Program-made: the position numbers and the translations under genes
The notes under the pieces: model-generated
Database searches by the model: none
What the model saw: the letters and a program-made list of their open reading frames with translations, nothing else
What the model was told of the DNA's origin: nothing
Part shown: one piece after another, positions 5,066 to 56,778 of the stretch
Layout of the letters: every line of letters begins with the position of its first letter
How positions within the stretch are numbered: the first letter of the stretch is position 1
Source of the DNA: an uncultured Planctomycetota bacterium
Lineage (GTDB): Bacteria; Planctomycetota; Brocadiia; CAIUPP01
Length of the DNA: 64,000 bases
Assembly (NCBI GenBank): GCA_903901045.1
Contig: CAIUPP010000061.1
Span: 38,374 to 102,373, forward strand
Reading direction: 5' to 3'

Positions 5066-5210
5066 AATGACGAATGACGGAGGAAACAGCAAGTGCTGGA
5101 AACGTGTCGACCGATAGCTCGCCTGGTGGAGCGCGCTGTCCCAGCGCGCTGGGTTCCTGGAGCGACACGTTTTGCCTGGCACAAGCGCGCTCGGAGAGCG
5201 CGCTCCACCA

Positions 5211-14120: not shown

Positions 14121-15755
14121 TCATTCCTCCACCGGCTTGAACAGTGCCAGGTCCACCGGCACGCCGCGCTCGCGCAGCTCCTGCACGAACTTCGGGATTG
14201 CGCCGGTGGCCGTCATCACCCCCAGCACGCGGCCATGCTCGTCGTATCCCTTCTGTCGGAACTCGAAGATCGGCTGCATGATGACCGTGTCCTGCTCCAT
14301 GCCGGTGATCTCGGAGATGTTGGTGATCTTGCGCGTGCCGTCCGGCAGGCGCGCGCCGTGGACGATGAGGCTGATGGCGGCGGTGATCTGCTCGCGGATG
14401 GCGCGGCTGGGCAGATCGAGGCCGGCCATGAGCACGAGCGTTTCCAGGCGCGCCAGGACGTCGCGCGGGCTGTTCGCGTGGAGCGTGGTGAGCGAGCCAT
14501 CGTGGCCGGTGTTCATGGCCTGGAGCATGTCGAGCGCCTCGCCGCCGCGGCACTCGCCGACGACGATCCGGTCGGGCCGCATGCGCAGGGCGTTGATGAC
14601 GAGCTTTCGGATCGGCACCTCCCCCTTCCCCTCGATGCTGGGGGGCTTGCTTTCCAGGCTGATCACATGCTCCTGCGCGAGTTGCAGTTCGGCGGCATCC
14701 TCAATGGTGATGATGCGCTCGGTCGATGGAATGAAGCCGCTGAGGATGTTCAAGAGGGTGGTCTTGCCCGAGCCGGTGCCGCCGCTGATGACGGCGTTCT
14801 TGCGGTTGACCACGCCGATCTGAAGGAAATCGGCCATCGCCTGCGAGAGCGAGCCGAAGCGGATGAGGTCGGTGGTGGTGAACGGGGTGCGCGCGAATTT
14901 GCGGATGGTGAGCGTGGGGCCGGTGAGCGCCAGCGGCGGGATGATGGCGTTCACGCGCGAGCCGTCGGCCAGGCGCGCGTCCACCATGGGGCTGGACTCA
15001 TCCACGCGCCGCCCGATGGGCGCCAGGATGCGCCGGATGACCGCCAGAAGCTGCTCGTTGCTGGTGAAGCGCTTGTCGGTCAGCTCCAGCCGGCCATGCC
15101 GCTCGATGTAGATCTTGTCCCAGCCGTTGACCATCACTTCGTCCACGGAATCGTCGGCCAGGAAATCCTCCAGCGCGCCCAGCGCGATGGCCTCGTCCAC
15201 GACCTCCTTGACCAGCGCCTCCGAGGTGAGCCAGGAGGGGCGCTCCGAGGCGAACTTGGCGACGGCGGCGCGGGCGGCGACCGAGGTTTTGCCCCGCACT
15301 TCCTCCGTGGTCTTCTCCGTCAGGTCGGTGTGCTTGAGGTCGAGAGAGGCGAGGATTTCATCATGGATCTTCTTCTTCAGTTCGACCGGCGTGCGGCGGT
15401 CCGGGCCGAGGCGGGGATGTTTCGCGGAACTGGGCGGCTTGCCCACCGCTTCGGGGGCGGCCTCGCCGGCATGGAAGGTGAGCGTGAACGGCCCGATGCG
15501 AATGACGTTGCGCTCCCCCAGCGGCGCCTGCCCGATCACCTTGGCGCTGTTGAGGAAGGTGCCGTTGCGGCTGCCCAGGTCGTGCAGCACGTAGGCCTTG
15601 TCCTCGTAAGCGACGATGCAATGCTCGCGAGAGATGCTGGGGTGGTCGAGCACGAGGTGGTTGACGCCGGCCTTCTTGCCGATCTTGAAGGGCAGCGGGT
15701 CCAGCGGAACGCTGCGCGCGGAGCCGCTTTCGTCTCGCAGGATCAGTACCGCCAT
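14121..15755 (-). CDS. cpaF: CpaF/TadA secretion ATPase with N-terminal FHA domain fusion
   Basis: FHA N-terminus (IGKKAGVNHLVLDHPSISREHCIV...LHDLGSRNGTFLN), then Walker A (GGTGSGKTT) and VirB11/CpaF motifs. Confidence 0.9.
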   Translation of the reverse strand: MAVLILRDESGSARSVPLDPLPFKIGKKAGVNHLVLDHPSISREHCIVAYEDKAYVLHDLGSRNGTFLNSAKVIGQAPLGERNVIRIGPFTLTFHAGEAAPEAVGKPPSSAKHPRLGPDRRTPVELKKKIHDEILASLDLKHTDLTEKTTEEVRGKTSVAARAAVAKFASERPSWLTSEALVKEVVDEAIALGALEDFLADDSVDEVMVNGWDKIYIERHGRLELTDKRFTSNEQLLAVIRRILAPIGRRVDESSPMVDARLADGSRVNAIIPPLALTGPTLTIRKFARTPFTTTDLIRFGSLSQAMADFLQIGVVNRKNAVISGGTGSGKTTLLNILSGFIPSTERIITIEDAAELQLAQEHVISLESKPPSIEGKGEVPIRKLVINALRMRPDRIVVGECRGGEALDMLQAMNTGHDGSLTTLHANSPRDVLARLETLVLMAGLDLPSRAIREQITAAISLIVHGARLPDGTRKITNISEITGMEQDTVIMQPIFEFRQKGYDEHGRVLGVMTATGAIPKFVQELRERGVPVDLALFKPVEE

Positions 15756-24107: not shown

Positions 24108-24305
24108 TATAAGCCTGTCGCCGCAACGTCACTAGGACTATCTTCGCAATGCCCGTGCCATTGGCGCAGCGAAATCGCAAGCGGCTGCTATATTTCATGT
24201 TACAGTATTTGGCCGGTTCGCGCCCTTGGTGAAATGTCGCCGCACACCACAGCCCGCATGTAGGGAAATCCGCCACCGTAAACCACTTGCGCCCTTGCGT
24301 TTGTA

Positions 24306-24327
24306 GGGGCAAGGCATGCCTTGCCCC
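24306..24327. repeat. family-1 REP-like 22-bp perfect palindrome GGGGCAAGGCATGCCTTGCCCC
   Basis: Exact palindrome. At least 7 copies in the window: 28088, 34868, 38206, 40405, 55339 and 56642 (the last two degenerate), plus the GGGGCGCAGCATGCTGCGCCCC variant at 28005. Confidence 0.85.
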
Positions 24328-24437
24328 TGCGCCAGCACCCCCACGATGGCGCGCGCTTTCCCGCAAAAGCGCGGCGCCCTTCGCTGCCCCGATACAGCGA
24401 GCGGCCAGTCCGCGTCCCGCGCCGCAGGCGCGGGGAA

Positions 24438-24545
24438 AAGAAAGCGGAAAGAACGCACGCTGATTGCGGGTTTGATAACCCGCGCTACATCGGCCTCACG
24501 AACCGGAAGAACTGCACGGTAATCGCGGGTTGGATAACCCTCGCC
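24438..24545. repeat. family-4 element copies c and d (reverse orientation), tandem, upstream of flp genes
   Basis: Reverse complement of 24438-24490 is GTAGCGCGGGTTATCAAACCCGCAATCAGCGTGCGTTCTTTCCGCTTTC. 24500-24545 is a more diverged copy. Confidence 0.7.
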
Positions 24546-24558
24546 ACACCGCCTGCTT

Positions 24559-25274: not shown

Positions 25275-25324
25275 GTAGCGCGGGTTATCAAACCCGCGAT
25301 CATTGTGCGTTCTTTCCGATTTCC
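25275..25324. repeat. family-4 element copy b, in the 268-bp spacer between fumarate hydratase alpha and beta genes
   Basis: GTAGCGCGGGTTATCAAACCCGCGATCATTGTGCGTTCTTTCCGATTTCC, preceded at 25185-25225 by a solo CTCAGTT heptamer-repeat arm. Confidence 0.7.
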
Positions 25325-26393: not shown

Positions 26394-27824
26394 TCACACA
26401 TGATACACCCGCCCCGGCGCGGACTCCTCCTTCGTGTACCGCGCCAGCAGCGCCATCGCCTGCTCCAGGCCGCCGGCCAGCTCCACGTCGAACCCATTCA
26501 CATGGTCCCCGTGGCGCTCCAGCCAGCTCCAGGCGATGTGCAATTCCTCGGCGTCGCTCGGCGGCGGGGGGGTGGAGAAGAAGAACTCGTTCAGCGCGGC
26601 GCGCGCCTGTTCCGGCTCCGCGCGCGGGATCACCAGCCGCCGCAGCGCGCGCTCGCCGTAGAGCAGGAAGAGCTCCGCCTGTCCCTCCTCGGGCGCGGGC
26701 AGAATCAGCGTCAGGCGCTGCGTCGGCGCTTTCGCCAGCGCTGCGCGCTCGTGGATGTCGAACTGGATATTGATCTTCGGCTGGAGTTTGCGGATCGCGG
26801 CGGATTCTTCCAGCAGCGCCGCCAGTTCGGAGCCGGTGCGGCGGGTCTCCAGCCGCGAGACGGACTCCAGGATGCGCTCCCCCTTCTCGTCGCGGCGCAC
26901 GCGGGCGCGGAAGTAGCTCTTCACCCGCTGGCGCAGGTTCAGCGCTTTCCCCACGTACACGGGAGTGCCGCCGGCCTCCTTGAAAATGTAAATCCCCGGC
27001 TCCTCGGGCAGCTGATCGAGGGTCGCCTTGTCGAATTCATACCCGCTGAAATCCACCTCGCGCCGGACGGGATGCTGCAGCGTGGTCCATTCCTGAGGCG
27101 GGGCCAGGCCCACCTCCTCCGAGCGCGCGAGCATCGCGGCGAAGATCTCGGCGATGAAGCGCGCCTTCTCCTCCGCGCTGGCCGGCTCGCGCGCGGGCAG
27201 CCCGAGCTTGGTCGCGAGGCCGCCCGGCGTGGTTGCGCCCGCACCCAGCGTGCGCTTGGCCAGGCGTTCAAGCGAGAGCGTCTCCGCCTCCTCGCCGGCG
27301 AAGGAGAGGGCATGCGCGACGGCGTTCTGGAACGCGCCGATGCGGAAAGCGACCAACGTGGCGCCCCGCGCGAATTCGGCGGCTTTCGCGACGCACTCCG
27401 ACGCCGGCGGCGCCTGGCGGATCGCCTGTTTCAAATTCGGCGGAAGAATGAGGCCGGAGGGGAAGGGGTCCGGACGGATGGGGGAGCCCGCCGTCCCCTG
27501 CGAACGGCCGGCGGAATCGAGCCGCAGCGCGAACCACTCGACGTCCAGGAAGCGCGCGCCGTCGCGCACCAGCGTCGTCTGGAGGATGGCGTATTCCCCG
27601 GCACCGGCTCCTCCCGCGGGCGCCTTCGCGGCCACCCAGGCGCCCGACGCGTTCTGGCTCAGGCGCGGGTCGCCCGCCAGCACGGTCTTCACCAGCTTGT
27701 CCGTGAGTGGGGAAGGCTTGCCGGTGGGGAAGAGGAACTGCGCGGCGATCTCCTGCGACGCCGCCCCCTGTTCGCCGCGCTCGGCGACGAAGGCGAAGAT
27801 TCTGTCCTGAATGGAATTGCTCAT
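26394..27824 (-). CDS. GIY-YIG domain protein with N-terminal uncharacterised domain (Cho/UvrC-N-like nuclease)
   Basis: ATG at 27824 (MSNSIQDRIF...). The GIY-YIG motif PGIYIFKEAGGTPVYVGKALNLRQRVKSYF lies mid-protein. Confidence 0.55.
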   Translation of the reverse strand: MSNSIQDRIFAFVAERGEQGAASQEIAAQFLFPTGKPSPLTDKLVKTVLAGDPRLSQNASGAWVAAKAPAGGAGAGEYAILQTTLVRDGARFLDVEWFALRLDSAGRSQGTAGSPIRPDPFPSGLILPPNLKQAIRQAPPASECVAKAAEFARGATLVAFRIGAFQNAVAHALSFAGEEAETLSLERLAKRTLGAGATTPGGLATKLGLPAREPASAEEKARFIAEIFAAMLARSEEVGLAPPQEWTTLQHPVRREVDFSGYEFDKATLDQLPEEPGIYIFKEAGGTPVYVGKALNLRQRVKSYFRARVRRDEKGERILESVSRLETRRTGSELAALLEESAAIRKLQPKINIQFDIHERAALAKAPTQRLTLILPAPEEGQAELFLLYGERALRRLVIPRAEPEQARAALNEFFFSTPPPPSDAEELHIAWSWLERHGDHVNGFDVELAGGLEQAMALLARYTKEESAPGRVYHV

Positions 27825-29101
27825 CCCTTGCGCAGCGCCTCCAGCGTCCGGCGCATATCCTCCGGCAGCGGCGCCTCGACCGTCAGCGGCTGCTTCGTCG
27901 CAGGATGCTTGAACGTGATCCGCGCCGCGTGGAGCGCCTGGCGGTCGAGAAGCAGAATGTCGCCCGGGTCGCGCGGCGTTTGCGCGGACTCTGTTTCGTT
28001 GGTGGGGGCGCAGCATGCTGCGCCCCTACGCTCCGTGTGGACGCTCTTCCCCTCGTCCTTTGCTCGCGCGGAACCCTCCGCCGTTGTAGGGGCAAGGCAT
28101 GCCTTGCCCTTGCGCTCCGCATGGGCGCTCTTCCCCTCGTCCCTGTCCGGGCCGGATGCCCGCAGGTCCGACAAGTACAACTTGCTCCGCACACCGTACG
28201 ACCTGTCGCACAGGATCGGATGCCCGAGGGCCTGCAGGTGGACGCGGATCTGGTGCATCCGCCCGGTATAGAGCCGGCAGCGCACCAGCGTGAAGGCCGC
28301 GAAGCGTTCGACCACCTTGAACCCCGTGCGCGCCTCCTGGCCGTCCTCGCGCACCATCATCTGCGCGAGGTTCGCATTCTCGTGCTCCTCCCGGCCCAGC
28401 CGAAGGTCGATGAGCCCTTCCTCCTGCTCGATCACCCCCTCCGCGATGGCCAGGTACTCCTTGGTGATGTCGCTCTGCTCGAAGATGAGCGGCACGGAGC
28501 GATCGTTGCGCCCCGTCTTGCAGACCACGAGCACGCCGCTGGTGTCCTTGTCGATGCGGTGCGCCAGCTTGGGGACGACGTCCTTGCGGTGGTCCTCCAG
28601 GTTGCGGTAGCGCAGGTGCAGGGCGTTGATGAGCGTGTCGTAATGGTGTTTCCCCGCCGGGTGGACCACGATGTTCGGCTGCTTGTTGAGAACGAGAAGC
28701 TGGTCATCCTCGTAGAGGATCTCCAGCGGGATTTCCGCCATCCGTTCGCAGGCGTCCGCCGGGGCGGGGGGGAGCGGCACGCGCACCATCTCGCCGGACT
28801 TGACGCGGTACGAGCAATCCAGCCGCGTCCCCGACGAGGTGACCTCGCGCAGCTCGATCAGTTCCTGCACCTTGGTGCGCGAGCGCCAGCGCAGTTTGAC
28901 CTTGAGAAATTGATCGAGCCGAAGGCCGGCCTGGTCGGGATAGACGAAATGCTCCTCCGCCGCCTGGGGAGTGATGAGGCGGTCGGGCGCCTTCCCCGGC
29001 GGCATTAGCTGCCGGCACTGGCCGGGGCGGCGGGGTTTCGCTGGCTGGGAGGCGGATTGGCTCATATCGCAAAGATACCGGGCGGAGGGGGACAGGGTCA
29101 A
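27821..29101 (-). CDS. RluA-family pseudouridine synthase (RluD-like, S4 + catalytic domain) carrying an in-frame ~50-aa palindromic-repeat insertion
   Basis: RluA motifs (HRIDKDTSGVLVVCKT, LVRCRLYTGRMHQIRVHL). Codons encoding ...DRDEGKSAHAERKGKACLAPTTAEGSARAKDEGKSVHTERRGAACCAPT... map onto two tandem family-1 palindrome units (27985-28135). Confidence 0.8.
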   Translation of the reverse strand: MTLSPSARYLCDMSQSASQPAKPRRPGQCRQLMPPGKAPDRLITPQAAEEHFVYPDQAGLRLDQFLKVKLRWRSRTKVQELIELREVTSSGTRLDCSYRVKSGEMVRVPLPPAPADACERMAEIPLEILYEDDQLLVLNKQPNIVVHPAGKHHYDTLINALHLRYRNLEDHRKDVVPKLAHRIDKDTSGVLVVCKTGRNDRSVPLIFEQSDITKEYLAIAEGVIEQEEGLIDLRLGREEHENANLAQMMVREDGQEARTGFKVVERFAAFTLVRCRLYTGRMHQIRVHLQALGHPILCDRSYGVRSKLYLSDLRASGPDRDEGKSAHAERKGKACLAPTTAEGSARAKDEGKSVHTERRGAACCAPTNETESAQTPRDPGDILLLDRQALHAARITFKHPATKQPLTVEAPLPEDMRRTLEALRKG

Positions 29102-34823: not shown

Positions 34824-34867
34824 GTGCGCGCCGCGCCGGGCATTAGTCGATCGGGCCTCCACCTTCA

Positions 34868-34888
34868 GGGGCAAGGCATGCCTTGCCC
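34868..34888. repeat. family-1 REP-like palindrome copy
   Basis: GGGGCAAGGCATGCCTTGCCC. Confidence 0.8.
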
Positions 34889-34929
34889 TCTGACGACGCC
34901 GGGGTGTTTCTCTGCGAGAGGGAGAGCGG

Positions 34930-38011: not shown

Positions 38012-38206
38012 ATGGGTGAGAAGAAAAGTTTCCTTCTGCGCATAGACGCCGGGCTCTGGGATGAACTCCAATCCTGGGCCGACGACGAACTGCGCAGCGT
38101 CAACGGGCAAATCGAATACCTCCTGCGCGAGACGGTGCGGGCGCGGCGCAGCCAGCGCGCAGATAAGCGTAACCCGCAGGGGGCAGCGCGCCGTCCTGTT
38201 CTGTAG
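38012..38206 (+). CDS. Arc-type ribbon-helix-helix DNA-binding protein (putative)
   Basis: FLLRIDAGLWDELQSWADDELRSVNGQIEYLLRE resembles the Arc/RHH beta-alpha-alpha unit with the RSxNxEI motif. Confidence 0.45.
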   Translation: MGEKKSFLLRIDAGLWDELQSWADDELRSVNGQIEYLLRETVRARRSQRADKRNPQGAARRPVL

Positions 38207-38226
38207 GGGCAAGGCATGCCTTGCCC
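38206..38226. repeat. family-1 REP-like palindrome copy
   Basis: GGGGCAAGGCATGCCTTGCCC immediately after the RHH gene stop. Confidence 0.8.
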
Positions 38227-38336
38227 TCCAGCCCGCATAGCGCTCGGCGCCCTCGCCCAGCATTGCACCCCTCCTCCGCCAATTGCTAAGATACGGCATT
38301 GCGCGATATTCCGTTGTTTCTTCCCGGAGCCCAGGA

Positions 38337-40275: not shown

Positions 40276-40404
40276 AATAGGCCACTCGGAGTGCGAGCCG
40301 TGTGTGGCGCGGACTATCCAGTCCGCGTCGCGGGCGGAACGCCCGCGGTGCCGTTACTGGGGAGCAGTATGCTGCGCCCTGGTCGGGAAGGGCGATCGCC
40401 CAGG

Positions 40405-40426
40405 GGGCAAGGCATGCCTTGCCCCT
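40405..40426. repeat. family-1 REP-like palindrome copy (perfect)
   Basis: GGGGCAAGGCATGCCTTGCCCC between the pilin gene and the gyrB stop. Confidence 0.85.
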
Positions 40427-40451
40427 ACACTTCCGCAATGCCCCCCTCGGG

Positions 40452-47646: not shown

Positions 47647-47743
47647 GGCGGAAGTTGGCGCGGTTCACCACAACCAGGGCGCAGCCCATCGAGAGCCTCA
47701 GGGTCGAACGACATGCTGCGCCCCTACAGCAAACCCACGGCCG

Positions 47744-54381: not shown

Positions 54382-55941
54382 TCAAGTGAAATTTAACATG
54401 TTTTTTGCGCCCACTGCCGCCAGCAGCGCGAGCGCTTTTTGCGCCGTTTCGTCGAACTCCGCCTCCGGCCGGCTGTCGGCGACGATGCCGCCCCCGGCCT
54501 GCAGCCAGACCTTGCCTTCGACGGTCAGGATCGTGCGGATGGCGACGCTCATCTCCAGCGCGCCGTCGAACCCCAGGAAGCCGACCGCGCCGGTGTACAC
54601 GGAGCGGGCGGTCGGCTCCAGCTCGTCGATGATCTGCATCGCCCGGACTTTGGGCGCGCCGGTGATGGAGCCGCAGGGGAAGGTCGCGCGCAGCAGATCC
54701 ACCCGGTCGCGGTCGCCGTGGAGTTCCCCCGAGACGGTGGCGACCAGATGATGAACCGTGGGATAGCTCTCCAGGCGCCGCGCCTCCTCCACCCGCACCG
54801 AGCCGTAGGAGCAGACGCGCCCGAGGTCGTTGCGTTCCAGGTCCACGATCATCGCCAGTTCGGCGTTGTCCTTTTCGCTGAGCAGAAGCTCCTGCGCGAG
54901 CGCGCGGTCCTCCTGCGCCGAGACGCCGCGCGGGCGCGTTCCCTTGATCGGCCGCGTCTCCACGCGCCCCCCGCGCAACGAGAGAAACCGCTCCGGCGAG
55001 GCGCTGACCACGGCACGCCCTCCCCCCAAGTCCAGATACGCCGCCATCGGCGCAGGGTTGATCCGGCGCAGCCGCAGATAGAGTTCCCACGGGGGCAGCG
55101 CGCAGGCCGCCTCGAATCGGCGCGAGAGGTTCACTTGGAAAATATCGCCCGCCGCGACGTACTCGATGCACCGCGCCACCGCCCGGAGATATTCCGCGCG
55201 CGAGAAGTTGCAGCGCAACTCCCCCGCAATGCCGGACGAGGCGAATAGCGAATTGCGAATAATGGGGTCGGGCTGCTTTTCGCCGTGGCGAAAAGATGCC
55301 TGACCCCATTTCGTCTTCGCCCAGGCGGATTCCGCCGTGGGGGCAAGGCATGCCCCGCCCCTGCCCGCGACGCCAGGAGCCGTCGCCGGCAGAACGCCGG
55401 TCAGCCGCTCCGCCAGTTCCCCCGCCGCCCGCGCCGCGTTGCGCCCGCCCGCCGCGCACCCCACCGCCCACGCCCGCTGCTCCTGCAGGTCGTACACAAT
55501 GGCGGCATCGTGGAACGCCAGGTGCGATTCCGGCAGGGGGATATCCGCGAGGGCGCGCCTCGGCAATTGCTCGATGAAATGGCAGAGGTCGTACCCCAGG
55601 TATCCCACCGCGCCGCCGAGAAACGGCGTCTCCGGGTGCGGAGGAAAAGTGCGCTCGTTCAGCAGCCGGCGCATTTCGCGGAAGGGATCCTCTTCCACGC
55701 GGCGCTCACCCGCCGCAGCGCGCAGAAGAAGGCTCCGGCCGGCGGACTGCATCACGCGATACGGGCGGCAGCCCAGGAGGCTGTATCGCGCCAGTCCGGG
55801 CATCGGCAGCGCGCTGTCCAGAAAGAACGCCCCCTCCTCGCGCGCCAGAAGGCGGAACGCCTCCTCGGGAGCGGGAGGATGGGGCAGCGGAACGACGCAA
55901 ACCGGCGCAGGCATGACGCACCCCTCAAGAAGAACCGGCAA
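54382..55941 (-). CDS. aminodeoxychorismate/anthranilate synthase component I (PabB/TrpE family) with in-frame repeat insertion
   Basis: Chorismate-binding domain motifs (SPERFL, IKGTRPRG, TFPCGSITGAPK). A ~45-aa insert (...GRGGACLAPTAESAWAKTKWGQASFRHGEKQPDPII...) is encoded by family-1 and family-2 palindromes. Confidence 0.85.
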   Translation of the reverse strand: MPVLLEGCVMPAPVCVVPLPHPPAPEEAFRLLAREEGAFFLDSALPMPGLARYSLLGCRPYRVMQSAGRSLLLRAAAGERRVEEDPFREMRRLLNERTFPPHPETPFLGGAVGYLGYDLCHFIEQLPRRALADIPLPESHLAFHDAAIVYDLQEQRAWAVGCAAGGRNAARAAGELAERLTGVLPATAPGVAGRGGACLAPTAESAWAKTKWGQASFRHGEKQPDPIIRNSLFASSGIAGELRCNFSRAEYLRAVARCIEYVAAGDIFQVNLSRRFEAACALPPWELYLRLRRINPAPMAAYLDLGGGRAVVSASPERFLSLRGGRVETRPIKGTRPRGVSAQEDRALAQELLLSEKDNAELAMIVDLERNDLGRVCSYGSVRVEEARRLESYPTVHHLVATVSGELHGDRDRVDLLRATFPCGSITGAPKVRAMQIIDELEPTARSVYTGAVGFLGFDGALEMSVAIRTILTVEGKVWLQAGGGIVADSRPEAEFDETAQKALALLAAVGAKNMLNFT

Positions 55942-56217
55942 ATGGTAGCGGATGTGCGCCTCCGCCGCAAGGAAGGCGGAGCGGGTTCTTTGCCCGGCCC
56001 GCTCGTTGTTTCCGGATCAAGCGCGCTGGGACAGCGCGCTCCACCATGCCACCGTCGCGTCCGATCTGCGGACTCGCACGTAGGCACGGGCTTTAGCCCG
56101 TGCGCCTGTGGGCGGGCGAGGGCCCGCCCCTACGCGCCAATGCGCCCCCCCCCCGCATGCTTGCATCCTCCGCCGCGCGGCGGTATCGTGTCGGCGGTTC
56201 AACAGAGCGAGGGCTCC

Positions 56218-56625: not shown

Positions 56626-56778
56626 GCACGGGAGGCCCGCAGGGGCAAGGCATCGGCCTGCCTTCCGACGAACGCGGGGGAGCTGGCCCGCGGAATGGTG
56701 GAGCGGGCTGTCCCAGCCCGCTCGTTGTTTCTGTCTGCAGCGCTGGGGACAGCGCGCACCACCACAGCGCACACGGCA

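Follow-up and report, generated by a model that had tools for sequence, protein, structure and literature searches.

How a pair of palindromes came to lie in frame inside the gene of a housekeeping rRNA-modification enzyme, and what has kept them there, is the question raised by a 64-kb stretch of contig CAIUPP010000061.1 (hereafter the window, meaning the whole stretch that was analyzed). The host is a gene for an RluD-type 23S rRNA pseudouridine synthase of the RluA family. The reading that we favor, and hold to be likely, is that a selfish or neutral pair of GTAG-type repetitive extragenic palindromes (REPs) was trapped in a permissive loop of this gene. An earlier note on this DNA had recognized the palindromic insert within an RluA-type gene but missed its identity as a REP element.

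The assignment of the host gene was examined at the protein level. The translated open reading frame (ORF) contains an S4 domain (residues 60-106, E 1.1e-5) and a PseudoU_synth_2 domain (residues 134-291, E 7.2e-27), and its best matches in the Protein Data Bank (PDB) are E. coli structures of RluD (E 2.5e-38); the gene therefore belongs to the RluD type of the RluA family. The sequences AHRIDKDTSG and HQIRVH are conserved in the ortholog alignment, and the combination that marks an RluD-type synthase (S4, PseudoU_synth_2, and the HRLD and HQIRVH motifs) is thus complete. In a protein search, the closest named RluD relatives came from metagenome-assembled genomes (MAGs) of Candidatus Brocadiia and Planctomycetia. 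A downstream ATG at MSQSAS may be the true start in place of the TTG at which the ORF begins.

The PDB alignment is split into two blocks, residues 54-306 and 384-424, and the loop between them comprises 16 residues in E. coli RluD (257-273) versus 78 in the window protein. The insert follows the catalytic-core motif HQIRVH..GHP..D..YG and precedes the C-terminal beta-strands; the ORF stays open across the palindrome stretch, and the C-terminal domain is still in frame. In an AlphaFold2 model built with the ortholog alignment, the predicted local distance difference test score (pLDDT) was below 50 at residues 318-373, compared with ~90 in the catalytic core before the insert and in the C-terminal strands and helix (383-425) after it. 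The insert is thus predicted to be disordered, as a loop that does not disturb the fold. This prediction, with the aligned orthologs that do not have the segment, bears out the earlier suggestion of a tolerated loop.

The inserted DNA is organized around two 28-nt palindromes, copies A and B in gene order (Table 1). Copy A encodes (R)KGKACLAPT, carries an intact GTAG on the plus strand, and has a calculated mRNA-strand hairpin energy of -14.9 kcal/mol. Copy B encodes RGAACCAPT, its mRNA strand carries GTAG and its plus strand GTGG, and its hairpin reaches -19.8 kcal/mol. The two are spaced by 84 nt (28 codons), and each heads one copy of a 57-nt direct repeat (28002-28058 and 28086-28142, 79% identical). 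The flank common to both on the plus strand reads ..GCTCCG..TGG.CGCTCTTCCCCTCGTCC, and the inserted peptide includes ...SAHAER/KGKACLAPTTAEGSAR.... The flank duplicate 28030-28058/28114-28142 gave a local alignment score of z = 10.7 against shuffled sequences. Tandem Repeats Finder (27800-28300, min_score 30) reported no repeat, and the rluD repeat is therefore not a classic tandem array but a REP pair with a 30-nt flank duplication. It is this in-frame, window-specific duplicate that makes the region look like two tandem units. Of the earlier description, the two repeats with one palindrome each, both ending in ...CGCTCTTCCCCTCGTCC, were seen as stated, as was the open frame with exactly the quoted peptide. 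The period proved to be 84 nt instead of ~75 bp, and the insert, put at ~50 aa and 27985-28135, extends over 27956-28156 with a net gain of 60 aa.

We next compared the RluD orthologs. The homolog set consisted of the best 120 of 4,191 matches, nearly all of them 340-370 aa long, from which 20 sequences were aligned. Only the window protein and one relative, P0001 (424 aa; DNA locus L001), carry the segment in this alignment, and all others pass directly from ..LSDxRPL to xxGEEDxxLLDRQ. When the best 120 homologs were scanned for the motif G.AC.APT, P0001 alone was positive and the other 118 were without it. The closest insert-free ortholog among the matches listed is P0002 (DNA locus L002); this locus and all more distant aligned orthologs show the empty site. 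Relative to L002, the net in-frame gain is 180 nt (60 aa) in the window and 150 nt in L001, both multiples of three. Outside the insert, the window protein is 90.1% identical to P0001 and 82.6% identical to P0002, P0001 and P0002 are 84.3% identical to each other, and all three are ~66% identical to their next relatives. These identities give the topology ((window, P0001), P0002) and therefore point to one gain in the common ancestor of the carriers, which would be the parsimonious history. When metagenomes were scanned for close RluD relatives, one close locus came back, L123, with the same sequence as L001, and no third carrier or intermediate. The earlier note had named, as the finding that would speak against an insertion, relatives with the same peptide and no palindromic DNA; the sole carrier relative, P0001, has the palindromes in its DNA.

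The two carriers were then compared nucleotide by nucleotide. L001 shares both palindromes with the window in the same order (AAG/CTT, then GCA/TGC) and the same orientation, and the stems are identical at 24 of 24 and 21 of 21 positions (45/45 in total). The gene bodies are 88% identical, with 75-79% identity at third codon positions, and the rest of the insert is only ~50% identical and a 30-nt indel apart. These comparisons suggest essentially no constraint on the peptide beyond the nonapeptides that the palindromes encode, with the hairpins retained.

Further copies of the palindrome occur throughout the window. The general form is GTAGGGGC-NNN-GCATGC-NNN-GCCCCTAC, GTAG-tagged, and the unit in the window lineage reads ..CGTAGGGGC-NNN-GCATGC-NNN-GCCCCTAC(AACG). 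The pattern GGGGCNNNGCATGCNNNGCCCC, with up to two mismatches, matched seven times in the window against 0.21 matches expected, and seven matches were reached in none of 100 shuffles. Six of the nine copies or half-copies in the window are intergenic, several of them <50 nt from a stop codon or between convergent genes, and L001 contains six copies in 13.5 kb. The ends of the copies are GTAG/CTAC, most of the other copies in the window and L001 starting with GTAG. Three inner-triplet variants, all compensatory, are present in the window lineage: AAG/CTT, GCA/TGC, and GTA/TAC. The units are short G+C-rich stem-loops of 28 nt, with arms of 10-14 nt that are 93-100% complementary, within the 20-40 nt of known REPs. 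A GC-rich hairpin, a terminal GTAG (GTGG or GTRG being the other accepted forms), dispersed and mostly extragenic copies near gene 3' ends, and sub-families with compensatory stem changes together match the published definition of GTAG-type REPs (PMC3733652). The rluD palindromes are therefore GTAG-type REPs; the terminal GTAG was found in both copies A and B.

Between the window and L123, intergenic copies differ by gain, loss, or replacement. At the orthologous REP site downstream of the fumarase-C gene, which in both genomes lies 143 nt from a shared conserved block, the window holds an AAG/CTT copy (24303-24330) and L123 a GTA/TAC copy (~14370-14397). Three compensatory pair differences at this fixed site suggest replacement or conversion of the REP over point mutation.

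To define the distribution of the family, the pattern GTAGGGGCNNNGCATGCNNNGCCCCTAC was scanned against 185,579 species genomes, giving at least 127 copies in at least 120 loci. Among the matches listed, the MAGs were assigned to Chloroflexota, Gemmatimonadota, Cyanobacteria, Planctomycetota, Binatia, and Acidobacteriota, and further to Nitrospirota, Armatimonadota, Bacteroidota, groups of the candidate phyla radiation (CPR), Proteobacteria, Firmicutes, and others. The free triplets were fully complementary in 116 of the 127 copies, and at least 14 fully complementary triplet types were present. The flanks of these copies showed no conservation. An all-against-all blastp of the ORFs at the 120 listed loci, run in search of a conserved neighbor gene, revealed no dominant family, only a small cluster of REP-associated tyrosine transposases (RAYTs). 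The clamps GTAGGGGC...GCCCCTAC were also observed around other inner palindromes (..ACGATATATCGT.., ..GTTATATATAAC.., and ..ATGGCGCGCCAT.. at L204 15600 and 19236, L016 ~1790, and L086 5150), and the family is therefore broader than the GCATGC-centered scan pattern.

We next searched for RAYT genes by tblastn, using the RAYT sequences from the supplement of PMC3733652 as queries and the window and all retrieved loci as targets. Matches were obtained in 6 of the 120 listed palindrome-selected loci, each time at the palindrome. The matching ORFs contain HUH and Y..NP motifs and match Pfam Y1_Tnp and NCBIfam REP_Tyr_transpos (E 1e-15 to 1e-18, below the equivalog cut-off). The RAYT gene of L045 has a palindrome copy on each side; that of L203 contains one copy and is preceded by another, 70 nt upstream. 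In L026, L075, L078, and L098, the palindrome lies in frame within the RAYT gene, and that of L086 has a variant at this place. Searching proteins with the L078 RAYT yielded 6,437 homologs (E <= 1e-10), and 80 of the best 120 have the exact sequence VGAxHAxPL right behind the HUH motif; most of the other 40 have a degenerate or reiterated motif, such as VGATHASPDPVGATHASPL. At the DNA level, the motif was a perfect 28/28 palindrome in all five genes inspected, three of which had been picked by protein similarity alone. The variable residue pairs in the motif (T/S, R/S, Q/A, and R/V) are those permitted by the DNA symmetry. These results indicate that the palindrome family is RAYT-associated in other genomes.

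Copies in frame were also found in other genes. Two of the three reading frames of the palindrome are open on either strand (VGAxHAxPL and RGxACxAPT), and the third holds the TAG of GTAG. The window contains a second in-frame copy in a PabB/TrpE-like gene, whose translation across the copy reads ..GRGGACLAPTAESAW... It occupies the linker between Anth_synt_I_N and Chorismate_bind, which is ~40 residues longer than in B. subtilis PabB and in the nine closest cluster representatives. Among the 127 copies, Pfam-supported genes of other phyla with the palindrome in frame include an E2 acyltransferase (L007:468-1808, minus; in the lipoyl/E3-binding linker), GltB (L008:3848-7999, minus; between GATase_2, the amidotransferase domain, and the central domains), a NACHT/FGE-sulfatase protein (L028:1-2652, minus), a hydantoinase (L119:5737-7737, plus; in the C-terminal domain), and a DUF2142 membrane protein (L011:1426-2943, minus). 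In-frame copies are not rare for the GTAGGGGC...GCCCCTAC palindrome family. The earlier judgment that in-frame repeat insertion is unusual was overstated, as intragenic GTAG and CGTC REPs and Rickettsia palindromic elements (RPEs) have been published (PMC3733652).

Under the favored reading, a GTAG-tagged REP pair with ~120 nt of accompanying DNA would have entered a surface loop close to the C-terminus of RluD, one that is permissive and variable. The insertion would have occurred once, in the ancestor common to the window organism and the L001/L123 organism, after the L002 lineage had split off, and a 30-nt piece of the flank would later have been duplicated in frame in the window lineage. 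The insert would have survived because its length is a multiple of three, because the frame R-G-x-A-C-x-A-P-T is free of stops, and because the extra 50-60 residues are disordered and leave the fold intact. A RAYT-type HUH/Y1 transposase probably mobilizes the element through single-stranded DNA hairpins, and the loop is presumably neutral for enzyme function. Hairpin-templated correction, gene conversion, or selection at the level of the REP, and not a need of the protein, would keep the stems perfect.

Several points weigh against this reading. By tblastn, neither the 64-kb window nor the 21-kb syntenic locus L123 yielded a RAYT. The palindromes (2 x 28 nt) and the 30-nt duplication cover 86 of the 180 inserted nucleotides, and the remaining ~90 nt resemble no other copy's flanks. 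When the 50-nt flanks of 14 copies were aligned pairwise against shuffles in search of a larger mobile unit, the sole significant pair was the intragenic duplicate; an apparent similarity between the downstream flanks of the RluD and PabB copies was not significant against shuffles. Head-to-tail dimers are rare among REPs (PMC3733652), and the orientation of the rluD pair is judged by the short AACG tail only. The stems are better conserved than the gene body, and the hairpins could therefore have a function. Finally, expression of the loop and activity of the enzyme are predictions from sequence.

The last point but one leads to the first alternative, which we regard as unlikely: that selection maintains the hairpins as a cis-acting RNA or DNA element in the rluD message, such as an exonuclease barrier, a processing site, or a translational pause, with the peptide as a by-product. 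Such an element might tune the expression of rluD together with that of the downstream gene 26394-27824, which is coupled to it in translation. The identity of the stems against the much lower identity at synonymous sites and in the other inserted DNA is what such an element would leave, although hairpin-templated repair or conversion can keep perfect palindromes without selection. The two hairpin energies, the folding of the 221-nt region, which is better than that of shuffles (z = -2.9), and the imperfect arm of the PabB copy, which still pairs through G.U on the mRNA strand only, are likewise in its favor, and RNA-level roles of REPs have been proposed (PMC3733652). However, an Rfam search of 27700-28400 (E <= 5) returned chance-level matches only, so that the earlier proposal of a cryptic RNA-level element gained from the conservation of the stems and lost for want of an Rfam match. 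In addition, L002 has the same operon layout as the window without the hairpins, the palindrome occurs in unrelated genic and intergenic contexts across phyla with RAYT as the only conserved neighbor, and orthologous intergenic copies were replaced or lost between the two genomes.

A second alternative, that the window and L001 lineages each gained a REP pair at the same loop by independent hot-spot insertion, we consider quite improbable. The ~50% identity and unequal length of the inserts would fit such a history, as would the AAG and GTA variants at the orthologous fumarase-C site, which mark such sites as re-usable or convertible. Nevertheless, the two variants, their order and orientation, and the codon boundary at which they sit are shared by both carriers, the 8 nt past REP A (ACAACG..) are identical, the spacer has ..TCCGCG.. 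in both, and one gain on ((window, L001), L002) is more parsimonious.

A third alternative, exaptation at the protein level, would make the charged, Cys-containing 60 residues a new surface on RluD for an interaction or for metal binding. Over ~10% amino-acid divergence the frame has stayed intact, and the insert has three Cys, within two G-x-A-C-x-A-P-T motifs. Yet, leaving the nonapeptides aside, the peptide has diverged about as far as DNA free of constraint permits, with a 10-residue indel between the carriers, and the loop is predicted to be disordered. The x-x residues vary across the family exactly as the DNA symmetry dictates, which indicates a constraint on the nucleic acid and not on the protein, and we give this alternative very little credence.

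That the segment is ancestral and was lost in all other lineages, or is an assembly artifact, has a negligible probability: the one point in its favor is that the close-range comparison covered two lineages, whereas ~118 listed homologs down to 35% identity are without the segment, the independent Joint Genome Institute (JGI) assembly (L001/L123) also has the insert, and the ORF is continuous with its C-terminal domain in frame.

The GTAG REPs and their RAYT (TnpA(REP)) transposases (PMC2817692, PMC3733652, PMC3333891) are the known system closest to the rluD REP pair. The likenesses are a G+C-rich palindrome of 20-40 nt bearing GTAG or GTGG at its end; numerous dispersed copies, mainly downstream of genes or between convergent genes; compensatory sub-families; frequent dimers at 20-100 bp spacing; occasional in-frame copies in linkers or loops, including those of pseudouridine synthase genes; and RAYT genes flanked by the repeat, as in L045 and L203 for the present palindrome. 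Intragenic GTAG and CGTC REPs are known from several species; dimers or groups coding for 20-30 aa make up more than half of them, with clusters of up to 82 aa, and they have been argued to occupy flexible linkers or loops (PMC3733652). The pseudouridine synthase genes truA and truB are among the published hosts, and Rickettsia truB carries RPE-1 (PMC3733652). The in-frame REP pair in rluD is thus a fresh, clean example of a phenomenon already documented in other bacteria. Particular to this case are the palindrome family, the probable planctomycete host, and the unusually clear comparative evidence for stems preserved inside an ORF. By contrast with the described families, the present palindrome has full symmetry, its two ends being GTAG and CTAC, and its 4-nt loop falls within GCATGC; its 28-mer frame occurs in MAGs of many phyla, while most described families are species- or genus-specific; and the transposase gene itself contains the REP, in frame, in most RAYTs of the present clade. 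A check of Di Nocera 2013 (PMC3733652), covering its main text, did not turn up the string GTAGGGG.

Three other kinds of repeat resemble the element in part. RPE-1 and its relatives (Ogata et al. 2000, cited in PMC3733652) are in-frame palindromic repeats in tolerated surface loops of housekeeping genes, with a pseudouridine synthase gene (truB) as one host and the empty site seen by ortholog comparison; RPE-1 differs from the present 28-nt GC-rich pair in being ~100-150 bp long, AT-rich, restricted to Rickettsia, and probably unrelated in sequence. Bacterial MITEs (e.g., Correia/NEMIS and the cyanobacterial Nezha; PMC10969869) are also small non-autonomous repeats readable in at least one frame that add a peptide, but they have terminal inverted repeats around 70-300 bp and target-site duplications, unlike the present conserved unit, which is the 28-nt hairpin alone. 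We considered RPEs as functional analogs only, not as a family under which to file the element. Cyanobacterial small dispersed repeats (SDRs), the work of Elhai et al. in 2008, are reportedly dispersed palindromic units of 21-28 nt that look mobile, some of them inside genes, nested or partly duplicated. SDRs are not known to have an assigned transposase. They share with GTAGGGGC...GCCCCTAC the very short dispersed palindromes and the occasional intragenic position, a likeness of description. Literature searches for the palindrome sequence string and the encoded peptides returned nothing relevant.

The coordinates of the features are collected in Table 1.

Table 1. REP copies, inserted segment, host genes, and RAYT genes. 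Positions are those of the window unless a locus is named.
Feature	Position	Strand	Remarks
RluD-type 23S rRNA pseudouridine synthase gene (RluA family)	27821..29101	minus	426-aa ORF beginning with TTG; Pfam and PDB matches
Variable segment between anchors LSDLRA and LLLDRQ	27956..28156	minus	201 nt in window, 171 nt in L001, 21 nt in L002
REP copy A, first in gene order	28086..28113	minus	GTAGGGGCAAGGCATGCCTTGCCCTTGC, core GGGCAAGGCATGCCTTGCCC; arms 100% complementary; inner triplets AAG/CTT
REP copy B, second in gene order	28002..28029	minus	GTGGGGGCGCAGCATGCTGCGCCCCTAC; 14-nt arms, 93% complementary; inner triplets GCA/TGC
Flank 5' of REP A in gene sense	28114..28142	minus	Source or partner of 30-nt duplication; codes DEGKSAHAER
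Flank 5' of REP B in gene sense	28030..28058	minus	Local duplicate, ~87% identical to 28114-28142; absent from L001
Second in-frame REP copy of window	55337..55364	minus	PabB/TrpE-like gene 54382-55941; codes GRGGACLAPT
Intergenic REP copy (AAG/CTT)	24303..24330		Downstream of fumarase-C gene
Intergenic REP copy	34865..34892		42 nt past stop of 1637-aa HEAT-repeat gene
Intergenic REP copy	38203..38230		Between two plus-strand genes
Intergenic REP pair	40356..40428		Convergent genes; degenerate GCA-type copy 40356-40383, perfect AAG-type copy 40401-40428
Half copy of REP	near 47710		Outside genes
RAYT genes with in-frame REP directly after HUH motif	L078:5767-6330, L098:3004-3651, L026:1898-2590, L075:60-713
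RAYT genes with in-frame REP directly after HUH motif	L203:10001-10612, L204:10001-10564, L205:10001-10534

The gene downstream of rluD (26394-27824, minus) overlaps the rluD stop codon (ATGA) and encodes a 476-aa product with weak GIY-YIG and DUF7508 matches only; the pairing of the two genes is also found in L001 and L002. A mechanically called ORF, 26394..28016 (minus), begins at an ATG within REP copy B, in a different frame from rluD, and a plus-strand ORF, 27707-29008, is listed alongside it. The GCATGC center provides an ATG on both strands, and the palindrome-borne ATG is a likely source of mis-called starts for the gene downstream of rluD.

Two further palindrome families were observed in the window. 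A separate intergenic hairpin, (A)GCGCGGGTTATCAAACCCGCG(AT), is located at 25277-25300, at ~24460-24550 (two copies), and at 40306-40329, and two of its copies lie within a ~200-nt window-specific insertion directly downstream of the fumarase-C gene. A third family, AGCGCGCT-N5-AGCGCGCT (e.g., AGCGCGCTGTCCCAGCGCGCT), has at least three copies (5130-5150, 5184-5204, and 56020-56040), with a related sequence at 56701-56723.

In annotation work, it matters that real proteins gain 9-residue modules (RGxACxAPT or VGAxHAxPL) from the palindrome, whose recognition avoids false calls of novel domains, mis-called starts, and spurious ORFs such as 26394..28016. For the host, rluD offers a natural experiment in which a housekeeping rRNA-modification enzyme bears a 50-60-residue disordered loop at a defined site. 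The perfect stems amid freely diverging inserted DNA bear on how REPs are maintained, whether by selection, conversion, or hairpin-templated repair. Beyond this locus, it is possible, though we would not call it probable, that GTAGGGGC-NNN-GCATGC-NNN-GCCCCTAC is a pan-bacterial REP family carried along with its own transposase by being embedded in frame in the RAYT gene. We found no mention of REPs inside RAYT genes in the RAYT papers, in a limited literature search that does not establish novelty. If the idea is true and has not been described before, every RAYT passed on by horizontal transfer would seed the recipient genome with its cognate REP; the REP would be kept as a perfect hairpin within coding sequence (RAYT, RluD, PabB, GltB, and E2), a constraint or correction mechanism at the nucleic-acid level would act inside ORFs, and the RluD insert would be a visible by-product of this self-seeding system. 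A REP present across many phyla, and in frame in most RAYTs of one clade, could help to account for the founding of REP families once horizontal transfer has taken place.

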